A stretch of DNA of 55,269 nt, taken from Nanobdellota archaeon (lineage in GTDB: Archaea; Nanobdellota; Nanobdellia; Woesearchaeales; GW2011-AR9). A model generated the notes under the pieces. The model was not told the origin of the DNA. It saw only the letters and a list, made by a program, of their open reading frames with translations, and made no database searches. The stretch lies in the NCBI GenBank assembly GCA_038045005.1, contig JBBSYZ010000015.1:1-55269 (forward strand), written 5' to 3'. Shown piece after piece: positions 4,113-53,267 of this stretch; the stretch's first letter is position 1, and each line of letters begins with the position of its first letter. Made by a program: the position numbers and the translations under genes.

Positions 4113-4274
4113 ATGTCCCAAAGTGCGGGGTCAAGAAAGCGCCTTCTTTTTTAAACTAATTTATTGTAAGCTTTAGTACGTAGTTAGGAACTTTCAAGAA
4201 ATATGAAAACTATCATATTTCTGAACTGAAAACAGATCGTTGTCGGTTTTCATTTTCCCGCACTTTTAGGACAT
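4113..4274. repeat. Foldback element, copy 1 (arms shared with 8251-8458)
   Basis: The arms are ATGTCCCAAAGTGCGGGG (4113-4130) and TTCCCGCACTTTTAGGACAT (4255-4274), and they are complementary. The same arms occur at 8251-8268 and 8441-8458. The interior differs between the two copies except for the shared mini-element. Confidence 0.8.
4195..4254 (+). mobile_element. 60-nt tandem-hairpin mini-element, copy A
   Basis: Sequence CAAGAAATATGA-AAACTA-TCATATTTCTG-AAC-TGAAAAC-AGATCGTTGTCG-GTTTTCATT, flanked by TT on both sides. 59/60 identical to 8381-8440. Confidence 0.7.
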
Positions 4275-8204: not shown

Positions 8205-8458
8205 AAGGACGGATAGCTCCGCACTTTAGTGCGGAGTATCCAGCCCTTTTATGTCACAAAGTGCGGGGATTAGAAAGCCCAAAATAAAGCAACGACTTTA
8301 TTTGGGCACAAACGAAATCGTTGTTTCGTTTTGTGCGTCTCTTTTCAAGCCTCGCTCTTTAGAGCGAGGTGAGACGCTTTCAAGAAATATGAAAACTATC
8401 ATATTTCTGAACTGAAAACAGATCGTTGTCGGTTTTCATGTTCCCGCACTTTCATGAC
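8205..8458. repeat. Nested palindromic region including foldback element copy 2
   Basis: Hairpin GGATAGCTCCGCAC-TTTA-GTGCGGAGTATCC at 8210-8241. Foldback arms at 8251-8268 and 8441-8458. Internal hairpins are CCCAAAATAAAG...CTTTATTTGGG, CAAACGAAA...TTTCGTTTTG and GCGTCTC..CCTCGCTC-TTTA-GAGCGAGG..GAGACGC. Mini-element at 8381-8440. Confidence 0.8.
8381..8440 (+). mobile_element. 60-nt tandem-hairpin mini-element, copy B
   Basis: Identical to 4195-4254 except the last base (G versus T). Flanked by TT on both sides. Confidence 0.7.
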
Positions 8459-21495: not shown

Positions 21496-21978
21496 TTTCT
21501 TAGTTGAAGAAGGCTTGCGGAAAATTCTTCAGAAAGCGGCTAAGAAAGACAAAGTAATGTATGAAGCAGTTATGAAAAAGTTTGATGAGATCATTTTTAG
21601 CGCAGATGTTGAACATTATAGAGAGTTTTGAATAACCCTTAAATCCGAATGTAATCTCGCAGATTTATTCGTAAATTCAAAACACTCAAAAATGCTAAAA
21701 GCATTTTTAGTGTCCAAGAAAAGCCAACAGCTTTTCTCAGGACTCTATAGAGAACTTTGAATAGTGCTCAATGAAACAAAGATTTCATTGGCACTTAAAT
21801 GAAGTAGTTTCTTCATTTATAGTTTTTCAAAGTTCTCTATAAAAATTTACGGGCTCCTTTACAGGAATTTAAGCGGGTGCATATCAAAGGGTCTTTCGTT
21901 TTAATTTTCAAATACCTGCCTTCCGAGGACAGGATTATCTTTTTTGAATTAGATCATCATGATAATATTTACCGCTAA
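21488..21978 (+). pseudogene. RelE/ParE-like toxin gene interrupted by a 221-nt insertion
   Basis: Exon-like part 1 (21488-21619) reads MHNFLVEEGLRKILQKAAKKDKVMYEAVMKKFDEIIFSADVEHY. Part 2 (21841-21978) reads KNLRAPLQEFKRVHIKGSFVLIFKYLPSEDRIIFFELDHHDNIYR. Removing 221 nt restores one 89-codon frame. Confidence 0.75.
21621..21837. mobile_element. Composite MITE-like insertion inside the toxin gene
   Basis: Flanked by TATA (21617-21620 and 21838-21841). The outer ends are GAGAGTTTTGAA and TTCAAAGTTCTC. The inner 88-nt unit at 21750-21837 has perfect 12-bp terminal inverted repeats (TIRs) GAGAACTTTGAA/TTCAAAGTTCTC, its own TATA at 21746-21749 and two internal hairpins, one with loop TAGTTT. Confidence 0.75.
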
Positions 21979-21984
21979 ACAAGC

Positions 21985-22081
21985 GGCTCTGTGGAAAAAG
22001 TCGCAAGAAAACTGAAAACTATGGTATTTCTGTGCAGAAATAAGGTTTCCTTATTCTTGCGGCGACTTTTTCCACAGGGCC
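21985..22081. repeat. Palindrome carrying a mini-element
   Basis: Arms GGCTCTGTGGAAAAAGTCG and CGACTTTTTCCACAGGGCC enclose the 56-nt element at 22004-22059. Confidence 0.75.
22004..22059 (+). mobile_element. 56-nt tandem-hairpin mini-element, copy C (degenerate)
   Basis: Sequence CAAGAAAACTGA-AAACTA-TGGTATTTCTG-TGC-AGAAATAAGG-TTTC-CTTATTCTTG, flanked by CG on both sides. Confidence 0.6.
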
Positions 22082-29583: not shown

Positions 29584-29676
29584 GGGGCCATAGTTCAGAC
29601 TGGGAGAACACATGGCTGAAGAGTAATGGTTTACTACGAAACCATGACGTCGTGGGTTCAAATCCCACTGGCCCCA
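29584..29676 (+). tRNA. tRNA-Phe (GAA) with 19-nt intron at the canonical 37/38 position
   Basis: Acceptor GGGGCCA/TGGCCCC with discriminator A73. D arm GTTC-AGACTGGGA-GAAC. Anticodon stem CATGG/CCATG with loop CTGAAG^A interrupted by AGTAATGGTTTACTACGAA. T arm GTGGG-TTCAAAT-CCCAC. No encoded CCA. Confidence 0.9.
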
Positions 29677-29778
29677 CATTTTTCTAATGTTTTAATTTTG
29701 ATTAATTCCATCTCCGCAAATTCTATCTCCGTATTTTCTCGGATAACATTTAAATATATTCCATCTCCTCCAACGAAT

Positions 29779-30603
29779 ATGGATGTCGGAGGGCAGGCGG
29801 TAATTGAAGGAGTAATGATGCGCAATAAAGAGAAGTACGCCGTTGCAGTGCGTCTGCCTTCGGGAGAGATAAAAGTCATTAAACAGCAAAGCAGCAAATT
29901 TTCCCCCTGGTTCAATGTGTTCTTTATCCGCGGCGTGGTAGGATTAGGCTATACATTATATGACGGCATCAATGCGTTGGTCTGGAGCAGCAGCCAAAGT
30001 CTCGGAAAAGAAGAGCAGCTGAGCAAAAAAGAGATTGTCGGCACTATCGTCTTATCTTTTCTGGCAGCAATCCTTATTTTTGTAGCGGTTCCGTTCTTCA
30101 CTGCCAGTTGGATTTATGCCGAAGGGATATGGTTTAACGTGTTGGAAGGATTATTTCGTGCGGTTATTTTTGTCGGGTATCTGGCCGCAATTTCATTCCT
30201 GAAAGATGTAAAGGCTCTGTTCCGGTACCACGGAGCTGAACATAAAACTATTTATTGTTATGAGAACAAAAAAGAATTGACGGTCAAAAATGTCAAAAAA
30301 TTTTCCCGTTTCCATCCCCGCTGCGGAACCTCTTTCTTGTTTGTCATCCTGATGTTGTCCATATTTTTGTTCACTTTCATCTCCGGCCCGCTGTGGATGA
30401 AATTTTTAGGGAGGATTGCAGCTCTTCCGATCATCGCCGGAATAGGATATGAATTGATCAAATTAAGCAGCAGACATAGCGGTAATTTTTTAGTAAAACT
30501 GGTTATCGCTCCGGGATTGTGGATGCAGAGAATCACCACTAAAGAACCTACTGATAAGCAGATAGAAGTGGGCATCGCATCGCTGAAAGCGGTGCTGGAA
30601 TGA
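29779..30603 (+). CDS. DUF1385-family membrane protein
   Basis: Start [16 protein letters not shown]. Conserved HGAEHK and [10 protein letters not shown] motifs. The track ORF start at 29626 overlaps the tRNA and is rejected. Confidence 0.7.
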
Positions 30604-31085: not shown

Positions 31086-31111
31086 TCCTAAAAATGCGCT
31101 TTCCAGCATTT

Positions 31112-33523
31112 TTATGACATTATAGAGCTCACGTGCCCTTCTTTACTGACTTTGATAGTATTCTCCACGAAACTTTCTATCTTTGATTCGTGGGAGACGA
31201 TTATGGTCTGCCGTAAATTTAATTTTTCCATAACCTCGCGCACTTTATCCAGCTGTTCAGTGCTGAATCCGTCCGTGGGTTCGTCTAAAATCAACAGTTC
31301 TTTGGTGTTGATGGTGTGGATGACGTCATTGATCACCTTGTTCAGGGCCAGCCGGTAAGCGAGAGCGGCAGAAGTCTTTTCCCCGCCGCTCAGTTCGAAA
31401 AAAGAGATCTCGTAGCCGTTCTGCTGGATGCAAGGAGCAAAAGAGTCGTCAAGCTGGGCATAGATATTCTCATCGTCGATAAGCATAGAAAACCATTCCT
31501 GAAACAGCAGGCTGAAATGGCGGTGGATATGTATCATTACTTGTTTCTCGATAGTCAACGTCAAAGGCAGGAAATATTCTTCCAGCCAATGGTACAGCTC
31601 CTGCTGGCGGACTAATTTTTGCTGCTCTCCATCCAGGAAAACAATGCGTTCCTGCACTTCCTGGCAATGCCGCTTGGTGCTTTCCTGTCCGGTCTGCAAC
31701 TGCGCCAATTTCACGGCGATATCTTTTTCTTCCTCTATGAGGTTAGAAAAAGTTTCCTTTTTGATTATGATCTCTTTACTTCGATCATTTTTCTGGCAGA
31801 GTTCCATCTCTATCTTTTCCTTGACTCTCCGAAGCTCCAGAAGCCGCAGGTTAGTCTCCTCTTTTTGCCGGGAGCTTTCGGCTAAATTTTTTTCCAAGAT
31901 GAAATGCTGAGATAACAATCGGATCAATTTCTGTTTCTGCTGGGCTTGCGAAGTCAGCTCTTCGATATTATTCTGCTGCAGCAATTCCTGCTGCTTCTGC
32001 ATGGCGGCATTATTTTCCTGTACCAGCAGGCGCAGCTGTTCTTTTTTTTGGACTAATTGTTCTTTCTTTTTATGCAGCTGCTGCAGTTCCGCATCGATCC
32101 TCAATAATATATTCTCTTGAGAAATAATCTCCATAAGATTTTTTTCCCCGCTTTCTTTTTTGAGAAGTATTTCTTTTCTTTTCTTATCGAGTTCTTCCAG
32201 GAGCTGCTGCGCTTTAATCACTTTGGCATCTTCCTGGGAAACTATCTGGTGTTTGTGTTCTTGAGAAACTTGTTGCAGGCAGGTGGGGCAGTTTTCTAAT
32301 CCTGAAATCTTTTCTTGCAGCTCCCTGGATTGGGCCAGCAAAGTCTTATTTTTGATCATCAGGGAAGATGTTTTCTCGTAAAGTTCGTCTATCTCAGCTT
32401 TTTGTTGCAGCAATTCTTTTTTCTTTCCAAGCTCCTGCATGATTTTTTCTTTTGTTTTTTCGTTTTCCTGGCTGCCGGCAATCTCCTGTGAAAGTTCAGC
32501 CATCTGCTGCTGTTTTTGCGCAATCAATTCCCGGAAATGGCTTATCCTGCTTTCCAGCACGGTTTTAGAAGTCAAATATCGGTTTTTTTGTTCTTCCACC
32601 TCCTGCAATTCCTTTTGAATATGTTCCAGGGTAAGATTTTCCGGAAGAGATAGTTGATTAATTTCTTCTTTCAATTGCTGCTGTTTAAGTTCCGTCTGCC
32701 GCAATCTTTTCTGCTGTTCTTCCGCGAGCAGTAAAACCATTTTTAATTCCTGCTGCTCATGGACGAATTCTTTCTGCTGCAATTCCAGTTCTTCCAGCTC
32801 TTGTTTCTGCTGCAGGAATTTTTTCCTGATTTCCGTTTTTAATGGGAGGAGCTCCTGGACGGACCGTTCTGTCTTTTCCAGTTCCAGCAGCAATTGCCGA
32901 TGTTGCATTTTGTATTCCTGCAGCGGCTCTATTTTAGCGTTGAGCGCGGTTACATCTGAACGCGCCTTTTTAAGATAGACCTGCACATTCTCCCGAATAT
33001 TTTTGTAGCGGTCGATGTTGAATATCTTTCGTAGGCCGTCCAGGCGTATTTCGGCGTCTTCATGCAGGATCAGTTTCATCTCTTCCTGCGGAGTGTAGAC
33101 GGTGTAGCGAAAAATATAATTTTTATTTTTGGAAAGAAAATCTTCCGGATATCCCAATAAGGAAAGCATCTCTGCCTTCATTTCTACCGGCATGAGCTCT
33201 TTCTTGACATTATTGATAGTGATATGCCCCGGCATCTGCCGGACGGTATCCTTTTCTTTCTTGAGGTTCCGTTGGATAGTTATTTCCATCCCAGGCAGGA
33301 GAAAAGCCAATTCTACGAATCCTTTCGCCGCTCCTTTCCGCAGCAGGGATTCCGCAGGCAGATCGGGCCGGGAAGCGCCGAATAAAACAAATTCTATGGC
33401 CAGAAGAATGGTCGATTTTCCTGAACCGATGTCGCCGGATAAGAGGGTGGAACCTTCAGGAAAAGAGATACTCTCATCTATGTAGGAACGGATATTCTGT
33501 AAGCGCAGTCTCTGGAGAAACAT
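31112..33523 (-). CDS. rad50: DNA double-strand break repair ATPase Rad50
   Basis: Start MFLQRLRLQNIRSY. Walker A GDIGSGKST. Very long coiled coil with a central zinc hook CPTC. Signature LSGGEKTSAALAY and Walker B ELLILDEPTDG. The track ORF extension to 33610 is rejected. Confidence 0.9.
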   Translation of the reverse strand: MFLQRLRLQNIRSYIDESISFPEGSTLLSGDIGSGKSTILLAIEFVLFGASRPDLPAESLLRKGAAKGFVELAFLLPGMEITIQRNLKKEKDTVRQMPGHITINNVKKELMPVEMKAEMLSLLGYPEDFLSKNKNYIFRYTVYTPQEEMKLILHEDAEIRLDGLRKIFNIDRYKNIRENVQVYLKKARSDVTALNAKIEPLQEYKMQHRQLLLELEKTERSVQELLPLKTEIRKKFLQQKQELEELELQQKEFVHEQQELKMVLLLAEEQQKRLRQTELKQQQLKEEINQLSLPENLTLEHIQKELQEVEEQKNRYLTSKTVLESRISHFRELIAQKQQQMAELSQEIAGSQENEKTKEKIMQELGKKKELLQQKAEIDELYEKTSSLMIKNKTLLAQSRELQEKISGLENCPTCLQQVSQEHKHQIVSQEDAKVIKAQQLLEELDKKRKEILLKKESGEKNLMEIISQENILLRIDAELQQLHKKKEQLVQKKEQLRLLVQENNAAMQKQQELLQQNNIEELTSQAQQKQKLIRLLSQHFILEKNLAESSRQKEETNLRLLELRRVKEKIEMELCQKNDRSKEIIIKKETFSNLIEEEKDIAVKLAQLQTGQESTKRHCQEVQERIVFLDGEQQKLVRQQELYHWLEEYFLPLTLTIEKQVMIHIHRHFSLLFQEWFSMLIDDENIYAQLDDSFAPCIQQNGYEISFFELSGGEKTSAALAYRLALNKVINDVIHTINTKELLILDEPTDGFSTEQLDKVREVMEKLNLRQTIIVSHESKIESFVENTIKVSKEGHVSSIMS

Positions 33524-34840: not shown

Positions 34841-36895
34841 TTATTCTCCTATGTTTATGACCTGATCTTCATAACTTCCGTCGCGATAGATGGTGATGCC
34901 CTTGCATTTAGATTTCCAGGCCAGCATATAAGAATTTTCCACGTCTTTGATGGACGCAGTTCTCGGAAAATTGATGGTCTTAGAGATGGAATTATCGACG
35001 TGTTTCTGTAACGTCGCCTGCATCTTGATATGCCATTCCGGCTCGATGTCCTGCGCGGTCACGAAAATATCGCGCACGTCTTTCGGGACGTCCTTACAGT
35101 TTCGAACGGTTCCTTCTCTTGCGACTTGGGCGATCAGTTCCGGCGAATAAAAGCCGCGCTCTTTGGCGATTTTCTCAAATATCCTGTTGAGGTAGACTAT
35201 TTCAGCTGTGCCTAAGATAGTTTTATGATATGATATGGCGAAGAACGGCTCGCAGCCGGAAGAAGCGTCTGCTAAGATGCTGGTCGTTCCCGTCGGCGCA
35301 ATGGAAATGCAGGTCAGGTTGCGCATCTTTCTTTCGGCCTTGTGGTGTTCTGAATCTTTCCAGGCCGGACAAGGGCTGCGTTTTTCTGCCAGTTCAGAAG
35401 ACTTCTGGTAAGCGGTATTTTTTATGAAAGCCATGAGTTTGTCAGCCATCTCCAGCCCTTCCTCGGAGTCATATTTTATCTTAAGCCTGCTGAGCATATC
35501 CGCAAAACCCATCATGCCTAAACCGAATTTCCGTGTTTTTTTGGTATGTTCTTCTATTTCCTTGGTGGGGTAAGCGTTCATGTCAATTATATTATCAAGA
35601 AAATGCACCGCAGTCCGCACGGCATCAGCCAGCTCTTCCCAGGCCAGATCATTATTTTCGTCGTTGATAAATTTGTTTAAGTTCAATGAACCCAGGACGA
35701 TCCCTTCGTAAGGAAGCAGTGGCGCTTCCCCGCATTGATTGGTCGTCTCTATTTCTCCCAAGTGTTTTCCGGGATGTTTCCTATTTATCTCGTCGATGAA
35801 CAGCAGTCCCGGATCGCCGTTTTTCCAAGCGTTCTGGGTGATCATGGCAAAGACATCTCTGGCTTTGAGCTTTCCGACATATTTGTCTGTTTTCGGATTC
35901 ACCAGATAATATTCACGTTCTTCTTCCACCGCTTTCATGAAGCGGTCAGTTACGGCTACGGACAGATTAAAATTCTTCAATGCCGGCGGGTTGCGCTTAG
36001 CTTCGATGAACCGGATGATGTCCGGGTGTTCTACCCGCAATACTGCCATGTTAGCTCCCGGCCGCACTCCGCCCTGCTTTATCGCTTCCAAAGCTTTGTC
36101 GTACACTTTAAGGAAGGATACCGGTCCGGCAGCTACACCTACGTTAGACATGACGAAATCTCCTTTCGGCCGCAGGCGGGAAAAAGAAAATCCCGTTCCG
36201 GATCCGCGCTGATGGATGAGCGCCGCCTCTTTCAAAGTGCCGAAAATGCCGTTGATATTATCTTCTATGGGAAGGACGAAGCAGGAACTTAACTGCTGGG
36301 TTATCGTTCCTGCGTTCATCAAGGTCGGCGAGTTAGGCAGAAATTTCAATTCGGCCATGAGCGCATAAAATCTTTCTTCGTTTTTTTTGATCTCTTCCGG
36401 AGCTGCGCCATATAATCTGTCCGCAGCGGCGATATTTTTGGCCACCCGTTGCAGCATCCCTTTAGGAGTCTCGACCACCTTTCCTTCCGGATTTTTCAGC
36501 AGGTAACGGCGTTCCAGGATTTTCAACGCTTCGTTAGAGAATTGCAGGTTGGCATCGGCATTTTCTCTTCCGACGATCAGGGCTCTTTGCTCCCTCTCCT
36601 GATCTTTTTGGTGGCGGTAAAGGATGTATGCTTTTGCAGTTTTAGCATGCCCTTCTTCGATAAGGGTTTTTTCCACCGCATCCTGGATGTCATCTACTGT
36701 GGGAATTTTTCCGCGAAATTTCTTCTGCAGGTTTTCCAGGACTTTCAGGGCGAGAGAATGAGCCAGATCCCGGTCCTTTCCTCCCACAGTTTGGGCGGCT
36801 TGGAAAATAGCTTCGGTGATCTTATTAACATCAAATTCGGCGACGAGGCCGTCCCGCTTGATGATCTTTTTTATGGGAAGATTGCTTTCATTCAT
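34841..36895 (-). CDS. nrdJ: Class II (adenosylcobalamin-type) ribonucleotide reductase, short form with N-terminal ATP-cone
   Basis: ATP-cone IKRDGLVAEFDVNKI. Core motifs are SSCFVLPIED, GSGTGFSFSRLRPKG, TTNQCGE and GITIYRDGS. The Cys expected 11 residues after the thiyl Cys is Ile here (see findings). Confidence 0.8.
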   Translation of the reverse strand: MNESNLPIKKIIKRDGLVAEFDVNKITEAIFQAAQTVGGKDRDLAHSLALKVLENLQKKFRGKIPTVDDIQDAVEKTLIEEGHAKTAKAYILYRHQKDQEREQRALIVGRENADANLQFSNEALKILERRYLLKNPEGKVVETPKGMLQRVAKNIAAADRLYGAAPEEIKKNEERFYALMAELKFLPNSPTLMNAGTITQQLSSCFVLPIEDNINGIFGTLKEAALIHQRGSGTGFSFSRLRPKGDFVMSNVGVAAGPVSFLKVYDKALEAIKQGGVRPGANMAVLRVEHPDIIRFIEAKRNPPALKNFNLSVAVTDRFMKAVEEEREYYLVNPKTDKYVGKLKARDVFAMITQNAWKNGDPGLLFIDEINRKHPGKHLGEIETTNQCGEAPLLPYEGIVLGSLNLNKFINDENNDLAWEELADAVRTAVHFLDNIIDMNAYPTKEIEEHTKKTRKFGLGMMGFADMLSRLKIKYDSEEGLEMADKLMAFIKNTAYQKSSELAEKRSPCPAWKDSEHHKAERKMRNLTCISIAPTGTTSILADASSGCEPFFAISYHKTILGTAEIVYLNRIFEKIAKERGFYSPELIAQVAREGTVRNCKDVPKDVRDIFVTAQDIEPEWHIKMQATLQKHVDNSISKTINFPRTASIKDVENSYMLAWKSKCKGITIYRDGSYEDQVINIGE

Positions 36896-37880: not shown

Positions 37881-40800
37881 ATGGCTGAACTAAATCCTAA
37901 AGAACGAGCTAAGGAAGAAGTAAAAAAGCTTATAAAAATCTTCAATGATAATTTCCAACAATACAAGCTTTCCACTTATAAAGAAGCACAAGTGAGGATA
38001 GAATTTATTGATAAATTTTTCAATGCATTAGGGTGGGATGTAAATAATAAACAAGGATTCTCAGAACAATTTAAAGAAGTAATAAGTGAAGATGCTATAA
38101 AAATCGAAGGGAATACGAAAGCACCAGATTATGCTTTTAGAATTGGTGGTCAAAGAATATTTTTTGTTGAAGCAAAAAAACCTTCTGTTCAATTAAAGGA
38201 CAACCCTGAAGCAGCATACCAATTAAGACATTATGCTTGGAACAGCGGTATTCCCATCTCAATATTGACTGATTTTGAGGATTTTATTGTTTATGATTGT
38301 AGAGTAAAACCTAATGAGAAAGATAATTCAAGTGTAGCGAGAATCTTATTGGTTGATTATAAAGATTATATTGATAACTTTGATAAGATCTGGGATATAT
38401 TTTCTAAAGAAGCTGTACTTAAAGGCAGTTTCGAAAGGTATGTCGAATCTAAAAAAGGAATAAAAGGCACTGCCGAAGTGGATAATGAATTTTTGAAAGA
38501 AATAGAAAAATGGAGGGATAATTTGGCTAAAAATATAGCATTAAGAAACCCCGGCCTCTCTATTTCTGAATTAAATTTTGCAGTTCAAAAAACAATAGAT
38601 AGAGTTCTTTTCTTAATAATTGCTGAATACAAAAATATTGAGATTTATGGGAAATTAGGGCAAATCGCACAAAAACCAGATATTTACAAAAATTTAATGC
38701 CCCACTTTAAAGATTCAGATGATAAATACAATAGTGGAATTTTTGATTTTTCAAAAGATGCTATCACACCTAAATTATCTATTGATGATAAAATTATAAA
38801 AGAGATTATTGAAAATTTATATTATCCAAAATCCCCCTATGATTATTCTGTTTTACCAATAGAGATTTTAGGAAAAGTTTATGAAAAATTCTTGGGCAAA
38901 ACAATAAGATTAACTTCTTCTCATCAAGCCAAAGTAGAAGAGAAGCCAGAAGTTAGAAAAGCAGGAGGTGTTTATTACACACCAGAGTATATTGTTGATT
39001 ATATTGTGGAGAGTACTGTTGGAAAATTAATAAAAGATAAAACACCAAAGCAAATAGAAAACATCAAAATACTTGATTCTGCTTGCGGTTCTGGGACTTT
39101 CTTGGTGAGGGCATACACTTATGTTTTAGACTATCTTTTGGATTACTACAGACAAAATCCGTCTAAATACAAAAAAGAAATTTATCAAACTAAAAAAGGA
39201 AACTATTTTTTAACAACGGAAGTAAGAAAGAAGATTCTATTAAACAATATTTATGGTGTAGATATTGATGCACAAGCAGTAGAAGTAACAAAATTAAGTC
39301 TATTACTGAAAGTATTGGAAAATGAAACTAAAGAAAGTGTTAATCAGCAATTAAAACTATTCAAAGAAAGAGCTTTGCCAAATCTCGACAATAATATAAA
39401 ATGTGGTAATTCTTTAGTCAATTCTTCTTATTTCTCACAAAAAACCCTAAGTTCAGAAACAGAAGAGTGGCAGAAGATAAATCCATTTGACTGGGATAAA
39501 GAGTTTCCATTTAAATTTGATATAATAATAGGAAATCCCCCCTATGTCAAAGAATACACGCACAGGGAATCATTTGAGTTAGTTAAACATACGGATATGG
39601 TAAAATACTATCAAGGAAAAATGGATCTTTGGTATTTCTTTACTTGTAAAGCATTAGATTTACTAAAAGAAGACGGGTTACATAGCTATATTGCACAGAA
39701 TAACTGGGTTACTAGTGCGGGGGCATCCATTTTAAGGAATAAAGTACTAAGCGATTCAAAAATAATCTCTTTCTTCGATTTCAATGACTTTAAAGTTTTT
39801 AAAGAGGCTGGAATTCAAACCATGATTTTTGTTTTAGAAAAAAAACAAACAAATCGTGCATACAGTATTGATTATTATAGGGTGATAGATAAAAACGTAT
39901 CGAAGGAAGAGTTAGCAAATTATTTGATTACAAAAAAAGATGGTGAAAAAATAGAGAAATTCAAAGCAAAAATTAATCCTGCCGAATTAAAAGATAAAAC
40001 TATCAGCTTTGTTAATAGCCAAAATACTGATATTTTTGAACGCATGAAAAATGCAGATGTATTTTATTTGACAGAAAAAGAAATAACCAACGGATTACAA
40101 GTTCAACAGGAAAAAGTAAATAAAAAAAATCTAAAAGTATTAGGTGGGGATTTTAAGTTAGGAGAAGGAATTTTTATACTTTCAACCGATGAGCTGATGA
40201 AATTAAATTTATCAGAAAAAGAAACAAAAGACTTAATTAAGCCGTTATACACGCCTAAAGAGATAAATAAATACCACATTAACGATAAAAATAAATTTTG
40301 GGTGATTTACACCAGTTCAAAATTCAAAAATCCCGCCGAAATAAAACCCTATCCTAATATAAAAAATCATTTAGATCGGTTTAAAAAAGTTATTACGACT
40401 GACTTTAAACCTTACGGAATTCATAGGATTAGAGTCGAAGATTTTTTCAAAGAAGAAAAAATAATCTCTATTCGGAAAACAAAATCTCCCGGTTTTTCTT
40501 TTGTAGATTTTGATTGTTATGTTAATCAAGTGTATTATATCATTAAGACCAATAAAATAAACATGAAATTCCTAACGGGATTACTTAACTCTAAACTAAT
40601 TTATTTTTGGTTATATCATCAAGGGAAAAGGCAAGGTGAGCAATTACAAATAGATAAAGCTCCCTTAGTAAGAATCCCAATAATAAAAAACGAAGATGAA
40701 CAAGTTATAAAAAATGTTGAGACAATAATTGAACTATCTAAAAAATTGGAATCTGTTAATCTTGAACGGGAAAAAGAAATCATTAGGAAACAGATTGATG

Positions 40801-40889
40801 ATTTGGAAGAAAAGATTGACGCGATAGTTTACAGATTATACCACATTACTAAAGAAGAAAAGATAATTATCGAGGGGAGTTTGAAATGA
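37881..40889 (+). CDS. Type IIG restriction-modification enzyme (fused PD-(D/E)xK nuclease, gamma-class N6-adenine methyltransferase, specificity region)
   Basis: Nuclease motif PDYAFRIGGQRIFFVEAKK. Methyltransferase motif I is LDSACGSGTFLV and motif IV is IIGNPPYV. The C-terminal ~400 aa are typical of a target-recognition domain. Confidence 0.8.
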   Translation: MAELNPKERAKEEVKKLIKIFNDNFQQYKLSTYKEAQVRIEFIDKFFNALGWDVNNKQGFSEQFKEVISEDAIKIEGNTKAPDYAFRIGGQRIFFVEAKKPSVQLKDNPEAAYQLRHYAWNSGIPISILTDFEDFIVYDCRVKPNEKDNSSVARILLVDYKDYIDNFDKIWDIFSKEAVLKGSFERYVESKKGIKGTAEVDNEFLKEIEKWRDNLAKNIALRNPGLSISELNFAVQKTIDRVLFLIIAEYKNIEIYGKLGQIAQKPDIYKNLMPHFKDSDDKYNSGIFDFSKDAITPKLSIDDKIIKEIIENLYYPKSPYDYSVLPIEILGKVYEKFLGKTIRLTSSHQAKVEEKPEVRKAGGVYYTPEYIVDYIVESTVGKLIKDKTPKQIENIKILDSACGSGTFLVRAYTYVLDYLLDYYRQNPSKYKKEIYQTKKGNYFLTTEVRKKILLNNIYGVDIDAQAVEVTKLSLLLKVLENETKESVNQQLKLFKERALPNLDNNIKCGNSLVNSSYFSQKTLSSETEEWQKINPFDWDKEFPFKFDIIIGNPPYVKEYTHRESFELVKHTDMVKYYQGKMDLWYFFTCKALDLLKEDGLHSYIAQNNWVTSAGASILRNKVLSDSKIISFFDFNDFKVFKEAGIQTMIFVLEKKQTNRAYSIDYYRVIDKNVSKEELANYLITKKDGEKIEKFKAKINPAELKDKTISFVNSQNTDIFERMKNADVFYLTEKEITNGLQVQQEKVNKKNLKVLGGDFKLGEGIFILSTDELMKLNLSEKETKDLIKPLYTPKEINKYHINDKNKFWVIYTSSKFKNPAEIKPYPNIKNHLDRFKKVITTDFKPYGIHRIRVEDFFKEEKIISIRKTKSPGFSFVDFDCYVNQVYYIIKTNKINMKFLTGLLNSKLIYFWLYHQGKRQGEQLQIDKAPLVRIPIIKNEDEQVIKNVETIIELSKKLESVNLEREKEIIRKQIDDLEEKIDAIVYRLYHITKEEKIIIEGSLK

Positions 40890-41980
40890 GATATAACTGT
40901 CTTATATTTTTATTAGCCATTATAATGTTTACTCTTGATGTAACAGCAGAGATAGTTGATTATGAAGTTGTTACTAGATTAAATAATAAGAATATTGGTA
41001 AAAGTGGTCAAATAAACTATTCCGTAGATATATTTGGCTCGGGTAATTGTACTGATGCTTGGATTCAAGTAATTCCGGAAGGAAAATTAGATTTTTCTTC
41101 ATCATTGTCAGTAAAACACACACGTAGTTTGGATCCTACATTATTAATACCTCTTGAATTTGAGAGTTTAGCTCTCAATGGAAATCCCAATTGCTCTCCC
41201 GATACTATTAAGACAATTGAAACAACCACTATGCATTTAGATGGAGTACATTTTGGAGAACTTAACTATTTAAATTTTTTAGGAAAAATCGATACCACTG
41301 GGAAAATAGAAGGCGGGGATTACGATTTAAATATAATCTTCTCTTGTAAAAAAGGCGAAGATTGGCATATTTTCAGCAATAAAAGTACTTTCCATATAAA
41401 ATACTGGTTGGAAGAATTACAATATTTATCTCAATATATTCTGATGATACTCTCGTTTATTTTTGGTATTTGTGCCAATTTTCTTTCAAATTTGATTTTT
41501 GCTTTTTGGAATAAACCCATAAATTTTATTGAAGATGAGGTAACCGAAAGAAAAAGTAGTTCTGGCATTTTTTATAGAATAATCGTGAAAAATAAAGGAA
41601 AGAGTGCATCTAAAAATTGCACCTCTAGAATTATTCTTACTGGTAAGATAGATGAAAAAGATCTATTTTTGGAAACATTGTTACCCTGGGCACCAGCATT
41701 AAATAGTGGAATAGTAGATATAAATGTTGATGACGCAAGGGAGTTAGATTTATGTTTATATAAAGATGGTTCGATTGTGATCCCTAATCACAAAGGCTAC
41801 AATAACCATGAAAAACCATTATTAGATGGGATAGAAGTTGATTATAACTTGGATATGTCAAAATTAAAAACCCTACGAGGAAATCTAATCATTAGTTCTG
41901 AAAATGCAACAATATTAAATAAAAAATTGATTATTAATTATGATAATAATAATCTAAAAATTAAGATAAAAATGAAGTGA
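40886..41980 (+). CDS. Hypothetical bitopic membrane protein translationally coupled to the RM gene
   Basis: 364 aa. The start overlaps the RM stop (ATGA). Signal/TM at the N-terminus and a central TM YILMILSFIFGICANFLSNLIFAF. No motif recognised. Confidence 0.5.
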   Translation: MRYNCLIFLLAIIMFTLDVTAEIVDYEVVTRLNNKNIGKSGQINYSVDIFGSGNCTDAWIQVIPEGKLDFSSSLSVKHTRSLDPTLLIPLEFESLALNGNPNCSPDTIKTIETTTMHLDGVHFGELNYLNFLGKIDTTGKIEGGDYDLNIIFSCKKGEDWHIFSNKSTFHIKYWLEELQYLSQYILMILSFIFGICANFLSNLIFAFWNKPINFIEDEVTERKSSSGIFYRIIVKNKGKSASKNCTSRIILTGKIDEKDLFLETLLPWAPALNSGIVDINVDDARELDLCLYKDGSIVIPNHKGYNNHEKPLLDGIEVDYNLDMSKLKTLRGNLIISSENATILNKKLIINYDNNNLKIKIKMK

Positions 41981-42005: not shown

Positions 42006-45000
42006 CTAACTGCACCCCGTCGTATCCCCGCACACCTCGCACAACATGCAAGTGCCGTTCCTTCTCAGCTGAGTCGCTCCGCAGCCTTTGCAGGATTGCT
42101 TGCCTTCAACTGCATTTTCACTTACAACTGTTTCTACAGCCGAAATCTCTTCTTCATCAAATTCCTGCAGGAACATTCTTAATTCCGAAATAAGAGGGTG
42201 CCCTTTGACATTCAAGCTTTTCTCAGCGATAAGAGAGGGAGTAAATCCGTTCTGCAATCCTAAGTTCACCAGATTCAATACTGCTCTCATCATGGTTTCC
42301 TGCGCCGGGGATAACCCTTCAAATTTATACGATATTTCTCCAACTTTATTATCCCGCATCACCGCAGAAAGAGTAAGCATCTGCGGGCCGACCTTGACTT
42401 TCTTTCTAATAATCTCTTTAACTTTGTAATTTTGTGAAGCAGTAGTCTCTTCCAGCATCTTCTTCATCTCCGGATGCTGTTCTAAGGTAGTGTTCAAGGG
42501 CTGGGATAATTTACAGCCGTCCCGATACAACGCAACTGCTTTGATCATCATGGTCCAGGCGTCGTAATATGCTTTCTTGATCTGCGCGACCGTCCATTCC
42601 TGAGGCATGTTGATAGTTTTTGAAATAGCACCGGAGATGAACGGCTGCACCGCTGCCAGCATCTTCAGATGCCCGTAAGGATGAATGTATCTCCGCCCTT
42701 TTTTTCCGCATTTGTTGGCGCAGTCAAATATCTCATAATGCTCTACCCGAAGATGCGGAGCCCCTTCCAGAGTCATAGTGCCGCAGATGTATCGGTTGGC
42801 AAGATCTATCTGTTCCTGGCTGAAGCCGAGAGTGTTAAGCATTTTACCTTCTTTTCCGTCCATCAACTTTGCATACAGCTCTTCTCCTAAAGCCCATCTG
42901 CTGAACAGCTGCTCGATGTCCATGGTATTCCTTAATTCTTTTTCAACCTTCTCCAGAGCTTTGGAAGTGAAACCTTTTTGCAATAAGGATTCTTTATTGA
43001 TGGCCGGGCTTCCTTCAAAATTTCCGCGGCCTAGGCAATAAGCGATTATCTCCTTGATCTGCTTCTCGCTGTAACCTAGCTTATGCAGCGCTTTAGGTAC
43101 AGAATTGTTGACTATCTTAAAGAAGCCGCCTCCGGCAAGTTTCTTGTATTTTACCAAAGCATAATCCGGCTCTACGCCGGTGGTGTCGCAATCCATGACC
43201 AACCCGATGGTGCCGGTAGGAGCCAAAACTGTGACTTGTGCATTCCTATACCCGAATTGCTCTCCTAATTCTAAAGCCTTATCCCAGCAGTCATGAACTG
43301 CATCGAGCAATTCCGTCGGACATAAATTTTGATTGATCGCTTTCGGCCGGATACTCAATCCTTCGTAATCGTCCGTATCATATGCTGCCCGGCGATGATT
43401 TCTTATCACCCTAAGCATGGATTCTTTATTTTCAGGGTATCGTTCAAATGCTCCCAAGATACTGGCAAGTTCAGCAGAGGTTGCATAACTTTGCCCGGTC
43501 ATGATCGCGGCCATGGTTCCGGCGATGGCATGGCTTTTATCGCTGTCGTAAGGGATCCCCTGCAGCATCAGCAGGGTGCCCAGATTTGCGAATCCTAACC
43601 CGATAGTCCTATATTCAAAACTTTTTTTGGCGATCTCTTCCGAAGGGAAGTGAGCCATGAGCACGGAAATCTCTAAAGCTATCGTCCATAAGTGGATAAC
43701 GTGCCGGTATCCCTGCACATCAAATTCTCCTTTTTCTTCATCATATAACCTTACCAGATTGATCGATGCTAAATTGCAGGCGGTGTCGTCCAAAAAAACG
43801 TATTCGCTGCAGGGATTGGTCGCTCTAAGCCTTCCTCCGGCCGGACAGGTATGCCATTCGTTCATAGTCGTGTCGAATTGAACTCCGGGATCGGCGGAAG
43901 CCCAGGCGCAGTATCCGATGTCATCCCATAATTTTTCTGCAGGAAGGATTTTCATAACCTCGCCGGTGATCCTTCCCTTCAGTTCCCACATCCCTTTATT
44001 TTCTAAAACTTCAAAAAAAGTGTTAGGGATGCGTACGGAATTATTGCTGTTCTGTCCTGAAACGGTTAGATATGCATCCGACTCATAATGGGTGTCAAAT
44101 TCTTTTAGAGGAAGATCATACCCCTGCTTGGCTAAATCGATGGCGCGCACGATATAATTCAGAGGGATCTTATTATCAGCAGCTTCTTTCATCGCTGACT
44201 GCACTTCCTGATGTTCCAACGGCTTCTCTTTGTTTTTTGCAGATTCTATCAGCTTAGATAATTTCTCATTAAGTGTTTTGCTTCCTGCGACTAAACTGGC
44301 GACTTTTTCTTCTTCTCTAGTTTTCCACCACACGAAATCTTCTATTTCCGGATGGTCTAGATCAAGACAGACCATTTTAGCCGCTCTTCTGGTCGTCCCC
44401 CCGGACTTGACGCTGCCGGCGGCGACATCAAAAATCTTCAGGAAACTCATCAATCCTGAACTCTGTCCGCCGCCTGAAAGTCTTTCTCCTTTTCCGCGCA
44501 GATTGGAAAAGTTGCTTCCTGTACCGCTGCCGTATTTGAATATTCTAGCTTCCCGGGTGAGCAGGCTGAAGATCCCGCTGGGCCTGACCAGATCGTCGGT
44601 GATGCTCTGGATAAAACACGCATGCGGCTGGCTTCTGGTGTATGCATCTTTGGAAAATTCTAATTTTTTAGTGATAGGGTCAACAAAACTATGTCCCTGC
44701 GCAGGACCGGTCAATCCATAAGCCCAATTCAATCCGGTGGTAAACCACTGCGGGCTGTTAGGGGCTGCATATTGATGTATAATCATGAAAACCATCTCTT
44801 CGTAGAAAACCGTTGCGTCCTGTGATGAAGAAAAATAACCGTAATGTTCTCCCCAATGCTTCCAGCAGCCGGCGATGCGGTGCGCTACCTGCTTGATGCT
44901 GGTCTCGCTGCCGGTGATGATTTTCCCATTTTCATCAAGAAGAAGTTCGCCATCTTCGCTGCGTAAAGGGACGCCGGCCTTACGAAAATATTTTTGCGCC

Positions 45001-45206
45001 AGGATATCGGTAGCTACCTGCGTCCAGAACGAAGGCACTTCCACGTCATTCATCTGGAATACTGCCGAACCGTCCGGATTGCGGATAGCGGAAGTTCGTT
45101 TTTCATAGTTGCACATGTCGAAGGGGCTGATACTTTCTTTAGTGAAATATCGCTTAATCTGAAGCCCTTTTTGTTCCGTCAATGTGCTTAAGTATTCCCG
45201 GTCCAT
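42006..45206 (-). CDS. nrdJ: Class II ribonucleotide reductase, long form with C-terminal Cys-rich tail
   Basis: 1066 aa. Motifs are ACFIQS, GSGTGSNFSNLRGKG, TNPCSEYVFLDDTACNL (thiyl Cys plus Cys at +11) and ALYRDGCK. The tail is CKGCGATQLRRNGTCMLCEVCGDTTGCS. Confidence 0.85.
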   Translation of the reverse strand: MDREYLSTLTEQKGLQIKRYFTKESISPFDMCNYEKRTSAIRNPDGSAVFQMNDVEVPSFWTQVATDILAQKYFRKAGVPLRSEDGELLLDENGKIITGSETSIKQVAHRIAGCWKHWGEHYGYFSSSQDATVFYEEMVFMIIHQYAAPNSPQWFTTGLNWAYGLTGPAQGHSFVDPITKKLEFSKDAYTRSQPHACFIQSITDDLVRPSGIFSLLTREARIFKYGSGTGSNFSNLRGKGERLSGGGQSSGLMSFLKIFDVAAGSVKSGGTTRRAAKMVCLDLDHPEIEDFVWWKTREEEKVASLVAGSKTLNEKLSKLIESAKNKEKPLEHQEVQSAMKEAADNKIPLNYIVRAIDLAKQGYDLPLKEFDTHYESDAYLTVSGQNSNNSVRIPNTFFEVLENKGMWELKGRITGEVMKILPAEKLWDDIGYCAWASADPGVQFDTTMNEWHTCPAGGRLRATNPCSEYVFLDDTACNLASINLVRLYDEEKGEFDVQGYRHVIHLWTIALEISVLMAHFPSEEIAKKSFEYRTIGLGFANLGTLLMLQGIPYDSDKSHAIAGTMAAIMTGQSYATSAELASILGAFERYPENKESMLRVIRNHRRAAYDTDDYEGLSIRPKAINQNLCPTELLDAVHDCWDKALELGEQFGYRNAQVTVLAPTGTIGLVMDCDTTGVEPDYALVKYKKLAGGGFFKIVNNSVPKALHKLGYSEKQIKEIIAYCLGRGNFEGSPAINKESLLQKGFTSKALEKVEKELRNTMDIEQLFSRWALGEELYAKLMDGKEGKMLNTLGFSQEQIDLANRYICGTMTLEGAPHLRVEHYEIFDCANKCGKKGRRYIHPYGHLKMLAAVQPFISGAISKTINMPQEWTVAQIKKAYYDAWTMMIKAVALYRDGCKLSQPLNTTLEQHPEMKKMLEETTASQNYKVKEIIRKKVKVGPQMLTLSAVMRDNKVGEISYKFEGLSPAQETMMRAVLNLVNLGLQNGFTPSLIAEKSLNVKGHPLISELRMFLQEFDEEEISAVETVVSENAVEGKQSCKGCGATQLRRNGTCMLCEVCGDTTGCS

Positions 45207-45455: not shown

Positions 45456-45576
45456 CACTCGAAAGGAAAACTATCCTTTCGGTGTGCAAGAAATGAGACA
45501 AATATCTCATTTCTGCACTGAAAATAAGTATTCTCTTATTTTCATGTGCCGGAAAAGTAGTTTCTTTTCCCAGCAC
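45456..45576. repeat. Four-hairpin nested repeat in the long nrdJ upstream region
   Basis: The outer unit is CACTCGAAAGGA-AAACTA-TCCTTTCGGTG ... CCGGAAAAG-TAGTTT-CTTTTCCCAG. It is split by the 60-nt mini-element at 45487-45546. Confidence 0.75.
45487..45546 (+). mobile_element. 60-nt tandem-hairpin mini-element, copy E
   Basis: Sequence CAAGAAATGAGA-CAAATA-TCTCATTTCTG-CAC-TGAAAATAAG-TATTCT-CTTATTTTCATG, flanked by TG on both sides. Confidence 0.7.
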
Positions 45577-48385: not shown

Positions 48386-48955
48386 TTAATATTTACTATT
48401 TTTATTCTTATTTAGGTACCACTGCAGCTGCCGTGCTAATGAATAGAGTGAAACTCCTCCGGCGACCAAATATCCTGCTGTAAGAAGTATTTTAGTGAAA
48501 GGGAATAAAGGATTGGTCGCAACAAGCAATACTGCTAAAGAAGCCGTCCTCATAAAAAACATGGGCGCCTGCAGTCCGGAACGCAGGTTTATCGCCAGCG
48601 CGGTCAAAAATAATCCGGCGGCTATGAAAGGATAAAAGTCCTGCACATAAAATCCCACTTTGATCAATGCTAAAAAGGTGACTATGCTGTCTGACAGCAG
48701 GTCAAAATATTTCCCGTATCGGGTCGGCCTGTGCAGCCTGGCCACTACTCCGTCAAGAGCATCACCGGTGAGATGGAGTGCCGCGAAGAGCGCAAACAGA
48801 TAATAATTTTCAAAAAGGAAATACATGGCTGAGATGCCGGAGATAAAGGATAACGCGGTGATGTGGTTGGCGGTGATTCCTGCTCCGGCCAACGATCTGC
48901 CGACCCTTTCCAGCTTTTTGCTTCTGTAAGCCCTGAAATTTTCTATGAGGTTCAT
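48386..48955 (-). CDS. CDP-alcohol phosphatidyltransferase (archaetidyl-serine/inositol/glycerol-phosphate synthase class)
   Basis: Motif GDALDGVVARLHRPTRYGKYFDLLSDS (D-G-x2-A-R-x8-G-x3-D-x3-D) with multiple TMs. Confidence 0.8.
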   Translation of the reverse strand: MNLIENFRAYRSKKLERVGRSLAGAGITANHITALSFISGISAMYFLFENYYLFALFAALHLTGDALDGVVARLHRPTRYGKYFDLLSDSIVTFLALIKVGFYVQDFYPFIAAGLFLTALAINLRSGLQAPMFFMRTASLAVLLVATNPLFPFTKILLTAGYLVAGGVSLYSLARQLQWYLNKNKNSKY

Positions 48956-49431
48956 CTTGAGACCAATATTTTTGTAAATTTTTCTTGATATCCTTTGATT
49001 CTGTCTTGATTTAAGTTATCTATAAAATGCAACAGCTGGGAATTGAATTCTTCGGCGATCCAGAACATCTCTGAAACTTCTGTTTTGGTGACACTAAAAT
49101 CGATGTAATACTGTTTATCTATGCGTTCTTTTTTAGCGGCGGCTATTTTTTCATTATCAATACCAAATATTTCTTTTAAGAGCATTATCGCTCCGGCGTG
49201 ATTTTCACATTTAATCCCGGTCTTGAATAGAAGCGCCAACAAGCTATAATACATTGAATAATAGGTTAGCGCTACAGAATCTTTGAGATTATTGATCTGA
49301 AATAATGCTTTCGCAGAGCGAAGCGACTCTTCAGAACGCTGTAAGTACGCAGTCTTTATTTCTTCGCTCGGCTCTACCGCCTGAATTTTCTTTTCTTTCT
49401 TTAATCTAAGCAAAAAACTGTTTTTTTTCAT
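48952..49431 (-). CDS. HEPN-domain protein (toxin partner of the MNT)
   Basis: All-helical, with SLRSAKALFQ...DSVALTYYSMYYSLLALLFKTGIKCENHAGAIMLL. Start MKKNSFLL at 49431 overlaps the end of the MNT gene. Confidence 0.6.
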   Translation of the reverse strand: MKKNSFLLRLKKEKKIQAVEPSEEIKTAYLQRSEESLRSAKALFQINNLKDSVALTYYSMYYSLLALLFKTGIKCENHAGAIMLLKEIFGIDNEKIAAAKKERIDKQYYIDFSVTKTEVSEMFWIAEEFNSQLLHFIDNLNQDRIKGYQEKFTKILVSR

Positions 49432-49954
49432 AATATAGTTCAATCCCCTTGATGATGGCATGATTCTTCTCAATTTCTTTTATGAGCAGGCTGTCCGGAT
49501 CATATTTTCCGATCTTCACGCTGGCTTTAGTATTCAGTTGTTCTATTTCCTTTTTAAGTTCTTGGTTGGTAGTCTCGATATAAATGTCTATGTCGCTGTC
49601 CTTATGCGCCAATCCTTTGGCGTATGATCCGAAGAGCACCGCCAGCTTGATCTTAGGTTCGGCTTTTATTTTTAGTATGATGTTCCTCAGCAGCGGATAT
49701 TCTTTGGCTGTCTGTATAAGCTTGTAATGTTCGGCGATAAAGGCGCTTTCCTGCGCTTCCAGCGTTTTTTTTAAGAAATAAATCTTGTTCCGCCCTTCCT
49801 GCCGGTAATCGACTATGTTGTCCCGTTCCAATTCTTTTATTTTTCTGGAACTCATCATCTGGTTAGTTTTCAGTTTTTTAGCCAACCCCCGGATATGGTT
49901 GGCTGCTTTTAGCAGATCCAGGATTATTTCCTTATTGTAATCTTTTTGTGACAT
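49406..49954 (-). CDS. Minimal nucleotidyltransferase (MNT) with N-terminal wHTH
   Basis: LAVLFGSYAKGLAHKDSDIDIYIET (G-S-x10-D-x-D), preceded by a wHTH-like ANHIRGLAKKLKTNQMMSSRKIKELERDNIV. Start MSQKDYNK at 49954. Confidence 0.75.
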   Translation of the reverse strand: MSQKDYNKEIILDLLKAANHIRGLAKKLKTNQMMSSRKIKELERDNIVDYRQEGRNKIYFLKKTLEAQESAFIAEHYKLIQTAKEYPLLRNIILKIKAEPKIKLAVLFGSYAKGLAHKDSDIDIYIETTNQELKKEIEQLNTKASVKIGKYDPDSLLIKEIEKNHAIIKGIELYYEKKQFFA

Positions 49955-49976
49955 GTGTAACACTTTTGTTAAAGAA

Positions 49977-53257: not shown

Positions 53258-53267
53258 TCCGGCACTC

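Follow-up and report, generated by a model that had tools for sequence, protein, structure and literature searches.

What is a unit of about 60 bp that encodes no protein, recurs along a stretch of archaeal DNA as two adjacent hairpins, and carries the same two base pairs on either side, and how does it spread? The stretch (hereafter the window) is 55 kb in length, and the five copies from which the question arose (A–E; Table 1) had been described as mobile tandem-hairpin mini-elements with conserved ends, compensated stems and site-specific flanking duplications. All five are present; the window has five occurrences of the end pattern CAAGAAA-N16-TTTCTG where 0.39 would be expected, and none of 100 shuffled sequences has as many. 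The fold of each copy contains two adjacent hairpins, with z-scores (flanks included) of -3.1 to -10.4. Copies A and B are, as had been reported, identical at 59 of 60 positions; they lie in duplicated larger palindromes and are therefore not independent insertions. A covariance-model search, which had been suggested as a follow-up, finds many more copies, both in the window and in other DPANN loci. The window contains at least eight copies, a density of about one per 7 kb.

Table 1. Copies of the element and related features in the window (H1 and H2, first and second hairpin; match, that of the family covariance model).
Feature	Position	Strand	Structure and context	Match
Truncated copy	1-30 (1-28 element)		At contig start; second hairpin (A)GAAAACTGA-TAGGTT-TCAGTTTTCTTG, then flank CG	1-27, 24 bits
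Copy A	4193-4256		TT-H1(4195-4223)-AA-H2(4226-4254)-TT	72 bits
Inverted-repeat backbone round copy A	4120-4266		Arms AAAGTGCGGG at 4120-4129 and 4257-4266; resembles a terminator palindrome of the recurrent TCCTAAAAGTGCGGG type	
Copy B'	8277-8336		Divergent feet; GC-(CCAAAATAAAG CAACGA CTTTATTTGG)-GC-(ACAAACGAAA TCGTTG TTTCGTTTTGT)-GC	50 bits
Copy B	8379-8442		TT-H1-AA-H2-TT	81 bits
Long palindrome round copy B	arms 8258-8267 and 8443-8452		Same kind as that of copy A	
Solo family-type hairpin	21714-21741	+	CAAGAAAAGC-CAACAG-CTTTTCTCAG	21681-21742, weak
Copy C'	21765-21824		Diverged two-hairpin copy; CAATGAAA-CAAAGA-TTTCATTG / TAAATGAAG-TAGTTT-CTTCATTTA; loops of the family, feet altered; apex of palindrome gagaactttgaa/ttcaaagttctc	45 bits
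Copy C	22002-22061		CG-H1-TG-H2-CG; within palindrome GGAAAAAGTCG/CGACTTTTTCC	41 bits
Copy D	45485-45548		TG-H1-CA-H2-TG	79 bits
Extra hairpins on either side of copy D	45460-45481 and 45551-45570		AAACTA/TAGTTT loops	
Copy E	53113-53176		TA-H1-TA-H2-TA	83 bits
Empty counterpart of copy E	54286-54347	-	Flanks of E (30 + TA + 30 nt) uninterrupted, 100% identical; TA at 54316-54317	

The window is cellular, archaeal DNA of a Woesearchaeota-like DPANN organism. Its gene content, as assigned with Pfam and NCBIfam to 60 ORFs (44 of them gene-like), includes seryl-tRNA synthetase, SepF, SufBD/SufS, two ribonucleotide reductases, CDP-archaeol synthase, a diphthamide synthesis protein and a NUDIX pair. 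Genomes of DPANN archaea are very small. A look-up via the gene adjoining copy B found no counterpart, and the sole other contig retrieved for copy D is identical at that site. The four-hairpin context of copy D is found again in three other loci (L053, L086, L095).

A scan of one genome per species with the pattern CAAGAAA-N14-18-TTTCTG-NN-CWGAAA yields at least 116 matching stretches, 89 of which, among the matches listed, come from DPANN-type assemblies; the pattern scan and the covariance model together give at least about 110 sites in these 89 loci. The loci are labeled Woesearchaeota, Pacearchaeota, Nanoarchaeota/Nanoarchaeia or simply 'archaeon', and some labeled 'uncultured Methanosarcinales' are counted in; we think that this last label is probably wrong for the assemblies concerned, because their flanks and proteins match Nanoarchaeia assemblies. 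In 578 kb of DPANN loci the covariance model gives 215 matches (both strands counted) of 33-86 bits, and in 27 bacterial or other non-DPANN loci a single match of 33 bits, all others scoring 22 bits or less. Twelve pattern matches in viral contigs (IMG/VR) all lack the structure of the element and are chance occurrences, and a viral origin was rejected on this ground.

Alignment of 45 non-redundant 64-nt elements defines the inserted unit as 62 bp, consisting of two imperfect 29-nt hairpins in inverted orientation, a 2-nt linker between them and one copy of a flanking dinucleotide, XY. The layout is XY-[CA(A)WGAAA-5 bp-closing pair-AAC triloop-bulged A-5 bp-TTTCW'G]-Y'X'-[same hairpin type inverted]-XY; the first half reads XY-CAWGAAA-N5-[p NNN p']A-N5'-TTTCW'G, and the second, after Y'X', CWGAAA-N5-T[p NNN p']-N5'-TTTCW'TG-XY. 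H2 is of the reverse-complement type of H1 in 45/45 elements, so that both strands of the element share one design; A bulges in H1 and T bulges in H2 of the same strand, and each strand has exactly one A-bulged hairpin, at its 5' side. The supposed hexaloop resolves into a closing pair, a conserved triloop (AAC in about 80% of copies) and a bulged A, which 44 of the 45 elements have. Neither the bulged A/T nor the AAC triloop was demanded by the search patterns, yet both are conserved. The other strand has a second bulged A, which follows the first pair of the foot. About one turn of the helix separates the two bulges, and the dyad axis of the stem relates one to the other, an arrangement that suggests recognition by a dimer.

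The foot is C-(bulged A)-W-GAAA and the stem is 11-12 bp in length, conservation being of shape rather than of sequence. At its outer ends the element has a perfect inverted repeat of 7 bp (CAAGAAA/TTTCTTG). Position three of the foot is either A:T or T:A, with covariation between the partners, which accounts for the CTGAAA...TTTCATG form of the other window copies as a covarying minority variant. Copy C had been regarded as degenerate, but most of the wider family shares its CAGAAA...TTCTTG ends. Copy A ends in TTTCATT rather than TTTCATG.

Selection on the fold, which had been proposed from the compensated stems, is strongly supported by covariation. Among 44 distinct sequences and 26 pairs, 97.1% of cells are paired, compared with 74.2% in column shuffles and 42-52% with slid partners; covariation scores 0.589 in the alignment and 0.170 in shuffles, none of 500 of which scores as high. 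Double changes occur in 16 pairs (277 cells). The five inner stem pairs are variable, and their compensation is achieved almost only by Watson-Crick changes; wobble is not favored among the non-Watson-Crick cells (5 G:T against 33 other mismatches). In addition, model scores on the two strands are alike, both in the window and in the DPANN loci. Three observations, namely the scarcity of wobble pairs, the equal scores of the strands and the complementarity of the linker to both flanks (see below), only one of which it could pair with inside one RNA, indicate that what is constrained is a DNA hairpin on either strand and not an RNA. The fold had been attributed to either RNA or single-stranded DNA; it is a hairpin at the DNA level, and the RNA half of that proposal is not sustained.

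The flanking and central dinucleotides are governed by one rule. The 2-bp flanking repeats are real in all five original copies (TT, TT, CG, TG and TA in A to E), and in four of these copies the linker is the reverse complement of the flank (AA, AA, CA and TA in A, B, D and E). In 55 of 62 non-redundant elements the two flanks are identical and the linker is their reverse complement, where about 3 of 62 would be expected by chance as estimated from dinucleotide frequencies. The flank/linker/flank classes are CA/TG/CA (18), TG/CA/TG (14), TA/TA/TA (9), CG/CG/CG (8), TT/AA/TT (4) and others; TC/GA/TC is one of the other classes that obey the rule. The flanking dinucleotide is thus variable, of the YR type in the 45-element alignment. 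Of the seven elements that break the rule, four do so by a single transition in the linker, and copy C (CG/TG/CG) deviates likewise, its TG being one transition from CG. Around single hairpins the 2-nt flanks are complementary in 138 of 153 cases. The complementary central dinucleotide is a clean, testable signature, and to our knowledge a middle dinucleotide that matches the target occurs in no described transposon family. The rule, by which the center is complementary to the duplicated target dinucleotide, forms no part of the original prediction.

Stems differ widely within this constant design. Almost every copy in one genome has different stems, drawn from a restricted, purine-rich set (5' arm W-N-H-R-R; 36 types in 121 hairpins), and identical 29-nt hairpin cores are found in different genomes with other XY and other partner hairpins. 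Chimeric combinations of flank and hairpin within one genome (L022, L054, L062) show recombination between copies at the shared center.

Empty sites were sought by joining the flanks of each element through one XY, and uninterrupted counterparts were found for many elements. In all 19 filled/empty comparisons laid out, the empty site consists of left flank, one XY and right flank, and the filled site adds H1-Y'X'-H2-XY; the linker matches the target dinucleotide in every pair, the rare classes TC and AA included. The 62-bp unit is therefore inserted precisely, leaving XY on both sides, which bears out the mobility proposed for a mini-element without a protein of its own. Copy E interrupts the left 165-bp terminal repeat module of an insertion sequence with an rve transposase, the right terminal module of which is 98-99% identical to the left and retains the same 62-nt stretch uninterrupted (Table 1). 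Copy B' is filled in the window and the homologous arm in L061 is empty (GGGGATCAGAAAGC|GTCTC). Nested insertions are found in the TCGT|TG loop of another family hairpin (L081) and in the TG linker of another element (L008), and the adjacent dinucleotides CA and TG of one terminator-like palindrome have been hit independently (L044 and L063, against the empty L056).

Elements are intergenic in 64 of 71 cases, with convergent, divergent and tandem neighbors in a ratio of 14 : 7 : 26; copies C and D lie between divergent genes. Many sites are recurrent palindromes of the form TCCTAAAA(A/G)TGCG...CGCATTTTTAGGA, which probably act as bidirectional terminators, and the empty sites, as reconstructed, have more structure than random segments do (-8.9 vs -4.8 kcal/mol). 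Preferred targets would appear to be AT-rich, hairpin-rich intergenic DNA, often terminator-like palindromes and the loops or linkers of other copies. Each copy had been placed at or near the apex of a larger palindrome; this is true of some (C, E and A/B) but does not hold for the family at large. Flanks and palindromic context had been suggested for tabulation, and whereas the 2-bp duplications are general, the palindromic context is only a tendency. An outer palindrome as a defining part of the element was rejected: the flank-flank duplex has -14.6 kcal/mol compared with -12.0 kcal/mol for mismatched flanks, 17% of sites lie beyond the 5th percentile of the control, XY is not preferentially in the loop of a predicted hairpin, and flank complementarity per site equals the expectation from base composition. 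A palindromic target logo (T-rich...R|YR|Y...A-rich) was also set aside, because it is weak and is confounded by the symmetry of the element and by recurrent homologous contexts.

A co-occurring transposase or recombinase, for which a search had been advised, was not found tied to the elements in the window or in the fetched loci. Genes between hairpins in the fetched loci are ordinary (FtsZ, ABC transporter, HPRT), and clustering of 648 neighboring ORFs gives no enriched family, the largest cluster having five members. This cluster is a nucleotidyltransferase with an HTH, of toxin-antitoxin type. A six-frame search for the Y1-HUH motif in the window and about 785 kb of fetched loci returned one spurious match and nothing else. 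The only transposase among the 60 window ORFs is the rve type whose own repeat is hit by copy E, and the fetched genome loci contain no insertion sequence with ends that match the element. Reverse transcriptases of the type found in diversity-generating retroelements are present in 3 of the 89 loci; the one in L116 is flanked by variant copies, and those in L035 and L030 have no adjacent hairpins, for which reason a reverse transcriptase was dismissed as the general partner. A Type IIG restriction enzyme encoded in the window (37881-40889), with predicted 2-nt 3' overhangs, could in principle be the source of the staggered break but was likewise set aside, the argument being one of distance numerology. 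The absence of a named family is confirmed as far as Rfam and the literature searched extend: only a tRNA passes the gathering thresholds in the window, sensitive E-value scans of copies D and E give sub-threshold noise only, no hammerhead, twister, C/D-box, K-turn or bulge-helix-bulge signature is recognizable by eye, and no description of such an element was found.

We rate the element as a small non-autonomous mobile element that is recognized by its DNA hairpins. With moderate confidence, we favor the fuller reading, namely a family of non-autonomous, structure-defined mobile DNA elements in Woesearchaeota, Pacearchaeota and Nanoarchaeota that spreads by a folded single-strand, guide-directed mechanism. 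A putative enzyme supplied in trans would recognize the hairpins as DNA hairpins, and the mobile intermediate would be a folded single strand, either a 62-nt circle or a rod. In this intermediate the junction XY would pair with the linker Y'X' between the feet of the hairpins, and the linker may act by analogy with the guide of IS200/IS605 and REP or with the paired core of an attC or CTX-phage site, setting the points of cleavage at both ends and requiring the same dinucleotide in the target. The circular 62-mer is predicted to fold as a rod with XY paired with the linker in 42 of 43 cases, and such pairing would make the complementarity a structural requirement of the intermediate. A guide-like linker would account at once for the complementarity and for what appears as a 2-bp duplication. 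Guides of 4 nt pair with the cleavage or target site in IS200/IS605 and REP systems (PMC6006769).

This reading is weakened because no transposase or recombinase is associated with the elements in the window and fetched loci, and because each strand of the element carries one hairpin in the mirror form of the other, unlike IS200/IS605; in addition, the specificity of a 2-nt guide is very low. Moreover, free assortment of hairpin cores, partners and XY is not predicted by the pasting of a fixed 62-mer with an inherited guide, which would need extra recombination between copies, and a linker templated by the target fits it better. The main rival therefore places the origin of the linker in the target, by assembly at a staggered break with 2-nt 3' overhangs (XY / Y'X'). 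Each 3' end would receive one A-bulged hairpin strand, through HUH-type transfer or target-primed copying of an RNA or single-stranded DNA template; fold-back synthesis would then copy the overhang, and the new ends would anneal via 2 nt and be filled in mutually, so that the target supplies the linker and both XY, and a pool supplies the hairpins, each drawn independently. Such an assembly would account for the 2-bp duplication with its complementary linker, the obligatory head-to-head order, the free assortment of cores with partners and XY, and the presence of one A-bulged hairpin per strand, on the 5' side. The reverse transcriptases in 3/89 loci, with the flanking variant copies in L116, also speak for it, but those in L035 and L030 stand without adjacent hairpins and no signature of reverse transcription is seen. 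The scheme involves many steps and has no known precedent, annealing through 2 nt is weak, and shuffling of hairpins could also arise by recombination between copies, as in the chimeras of L022, L054 and L062; on balance we consider it unlikely.

The other readings (RNA, DDE-type MITE, pure host function) are less well supported. Domesticated, REP-like host elements, spread or maintained by a single-copy RAYT-like enzyme and serving as bidirectional terminators, mRNA 3'-end stabilizers or binding sites for nucleoid or replication proteins, would be consistent with the conservation of feet, bulges and loops over an order- to class-level range of DPANN with copies that are diverse in each genome, with the density of copies in the window and the lack of an autonomous partner nearby, and with the roughly 2:1 excess at gene 3' ends over divergent regions and the insertions in terminator-like palindromes. 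However, copies C and D lie in divergent promoter regions, copy E lies in the terminal repeat of an insertion sequence, no T-run follows the hairpins, and RAYT-type proteins are not known in Archaea (PMC6006769); domestication is thus quite improbable. Being a statement about function, this reading could hold alongside the same mechanism of spread. A multicopy structured RNA, whether a small RNA or a cis-regulatory element, is very unlikely: the strong covariation, intergenic positions and folding z-scores (-3 to -10) would suit it, but the element is symmetric with strands that score alike, both flanks are complementary to the linker, the non-Watson-Crick cells show no excess of G:U-type pairs (5 of 38), Rfam gives no match, and the unit is present or absent with a 2-bp duplication even within an insertion-sequence repeat. 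We give equally little credence to an ordinary MITE mobilized by a DDE transposase (IS630/Tc1-mariner-like or of some IS5 groups), with the feet as terminal inverted repeats. The 2-bp duplication, the 7-bp terminal inverted repeat and the rve transposase adjoining copy E are as expected of such a MITE, but the duplicated dinucleotide is variable (CA/TG, TA, CG, TT/AA, TC/GA), and an internal dinucleotide that covaries with the target could not be produced by double-strand cut-and-paste. The neighboring insertion sequence, moreover, has unrelated terminal repeats (GGCTAATATGAAACCCT) and copy E is inserted into it, and no insertion sequence with matching ends is present in the fetched loci.

On the favored reading as on the main rival, the chance of the mechanism itself being new is substantial; that it takes the specific form of a re-programmable 2-nt guide in a 62-nt single-stranded rod, or of a two-hairpin assembly with a center written by the target, is a possibility that we advance tentatively. 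The element is a transposable unit that can be defined almost wholly by DNA shape (two bulges, a triloop and a foot), and its target-matching dinucleotide points either to single-strand transposition directed by a guide of minimal length or to a novel mode of assembling an insertion. If the mechanism is new, DPANN archaea would possess an enzyme family so far unrecognized, the system would be the first of REP-like type in Archaea, and no known transposable unit with a defined duplication would be smaller. Identification of the enzyme would mean the first REP/RAYT-like partnership described in Archaea and could give a very small, structure-programmed DNA insertion system. For genome analysis, the repeats break assemblies (the window begins inside one) and mark recombination hot spots, and copies in terminator-like palindromes may alter transcript ends.

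Among known systems, REP/REPIN and IS200/IS605 are closest in their working, with some logic resembling that of attC, but the defining features of each are lacking here. REP/REPIN–RAYT systems share short, extragenic, imperfect bulged palindromes that are non-coding, occur singly, in inverted pairs or in clusters, and number hundreds per genome; the inverted pair of the same palindromic unit corresponds to the arrangement in 45/45 aligned elements. In REPs a short sequence at the foot of the hairpin helps to define the cleavage site (PMC6006769). The GTAG/CGTC tag of REPs is absent from the present element, the foot of which is CA-W-GAAA, and its hairpins fold separately, joined by 2 nt, with a 2-bp duplication and a complementary linker. 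REPs are species-specific, whereas here the stems are diverse within each genome and the design is conserved across an order. The hosts are also archaea, with no RAYT-like (Y1 HUH) gene in the window and fetched loci; RAYT-type proteins are reported only from bacteria (PMC6006769).

IS200/IS605 elements and PATEs likewise use hairpins with extrahelical bases as recognition elements and are inserted and excised precisely, and the IS200/IS605 family is abundant in archaea. Their guides are complementary to the cleavage or target site, to which the 2-nt linker in 55/62 elements would be analogous, and they have a single-stranded circle as intermediate, a feature shared only to the extent that the intermediate modeled above is correct. 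IS200/IS605 guides are 4 nt in length and separate for the left and right ends, whereas one 2-nt linker would serve both ends here. Their hairpins are subterminal and alike on one strand, and insertion occurs 3' of a fixed tetra- or pentanucleotide with no target duplication; the present hairpins are terminal, mutually inverted and strand-symmetric, and a variable dinucleotide is duplicated. The Y1 transposase of that family was not seen in the window and fetched loci.

Integron attC sites and CTX-phage attP resemble the element in that function lies in a folded strand of DNA whose extrahelical bases are conserved and whose stem varies with compensation, and in that intramolecular pairing forms a duplex-like core. 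However, attC has R''/R' boxes (RYYYAAC/GTTRRRY) and one long hairpin, whereas the element ends in CAAGAAA/TTTCTTG without R boxes and has two hairpins, dispersed in intergenic DNA among housekeeping neighbors, with no integrase gene or cassette array. Correia/NEMIS, Stowaway-like and IS630/Tc1 MITEs are also small, non-autonomous, intergenic inverted repeats with a 2-bp duplication, but in these MITEs the duplication is always TA, the length is 100-160 bp or more and the sequence is conserved in each genome, and, unlike the present element, they have no internal base that depends on the target. Terminators would be expected to have an oligo-T tract, whereas no T5 run follows the hairpins here and the convergent:divergent ratio is only 2:1. 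In IS607 (serine recombinase) and IS110 (bridge RNA), a 2-nt core is common to the junction and the target and lies on both sides after insertion, and IS110 and IS1111 relatives target palindromic repeats; these elements nevertheless encode their own recombinase (IS110 also a guide RNA), have a core dinucleotide that is fixed for each element, and form circular intermediates that are double-stranded and kilobases in length.

Besides the two-hairpin element, a 62-bp mobile unit, a second motif family, (G)TCCTAAAA(A/G)TGCG(GG), recurs in the window and in many of the loci fetched from other genome assemblies (including L056, L063, L044, L069, and L113), and is conserved among different DPANN assemblies. 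The motif mostly occurs as inverted pairs that form long intergenic palindromes, and the two-hairpin element is often inserted at its sites. It may act as a terminator in both directions, or it may be a repeat family in its own right.

Hairpins of the two-hairpin family also occur in larger arrangements. Copy D, the two-hairpin element at 45485-45548, has a further hairpin on either side, which carries the family loop (AAACTA/TAGTTT) on feet (hairpin bases) that differ from those of the family. The resulting four-hairpin composite is also present in L053, L086, and L095, and could represent either an older, nested insertion event or a separate sub-family. In L081, one family hairpin has its TAGTTT loop interrupted by an insertion of another kind, roughly 50 nt long, which is made up of two small, unrelated hairpins and shows what looks like a duplication of TAGTT; this suggests that family hairpin loops are also targeted by other hairpin-type mini-elements.

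Features of the window and of fetched loci (coordinates are those of the window unless a locus is named)
Feature	Position	Details
(G)TCCTAAAA(A/G)TGCG(GG) motif	4120-4129, 4257-4266, 8218-8227, 8258-8267, 8443-8452, 31087-31120	
tRNA gene	29584-29677	93-94 nt; Rfam 57 bits
ORF overlapped by tRNA gene	29626-30603	
Second ribonucleotide reductase	34841-36895	ATP-cone
Low-GC island	37881-41980	
Class II (B12-dependent) ribonucleotide reductase	42006-45206	1066 aa
Hairpins beside copy D	45460-45481, 45551-45570	
HEPN and minimal-nucleotidyltransferase genes	48952-50005	adjoining; toxin-antitoxin type
Insertion sequence with rve (DDE) transposase	53031-54399	
rve (DDE) transposase gene	53291-54166	minus strand
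Family hairpin with insertion in its loop	L081 4270-4345	
Reverse transcriptase and Bro-N-like protein module	L116 5769-7821	2 kb

The low-GC island (GC 0.29-0.30, against about 0.43 elsewhere) probably arrived by horizontal transfer; it contains the gene for a type IIG Eco57I/MmeI-like restriction-modification fusion of 1002 aa, along with a 364-aa ORF that lacks annotation. Relatives of the minimal nucleotidyltransferase form the largest neighbor cluster across loci, with five members from five sources (four loci and the window). The tRNA gene, which overlaps the start of an ORF, probably contains an intron, because ARAGORN makes no assignment and gives a four-base anticodon, 'gaag'. In the class II ribonucleotide reductase, the barrel domain match is split over two stretches, which may reflect an intein or other large insertion.

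The rve insertion sequence ends in two inverted terminal modules of 165 bp that are 98-99% identical, each bordered by 17-bp inverted repeats (GGCTAATATGAAACCCT), and L003 carries a transposase 75% identical to that of the window. The module in L116 is flanked on both sides by variant two-hairpin copies, arranged as direct repeats (51 nt, 80% identical); such flanking copies are absent from the reverse transcriptases of L035 and L030. The L116 reverse transcriptase is of the diversity-generating retroelement type, with the motif LGNLTSQ.
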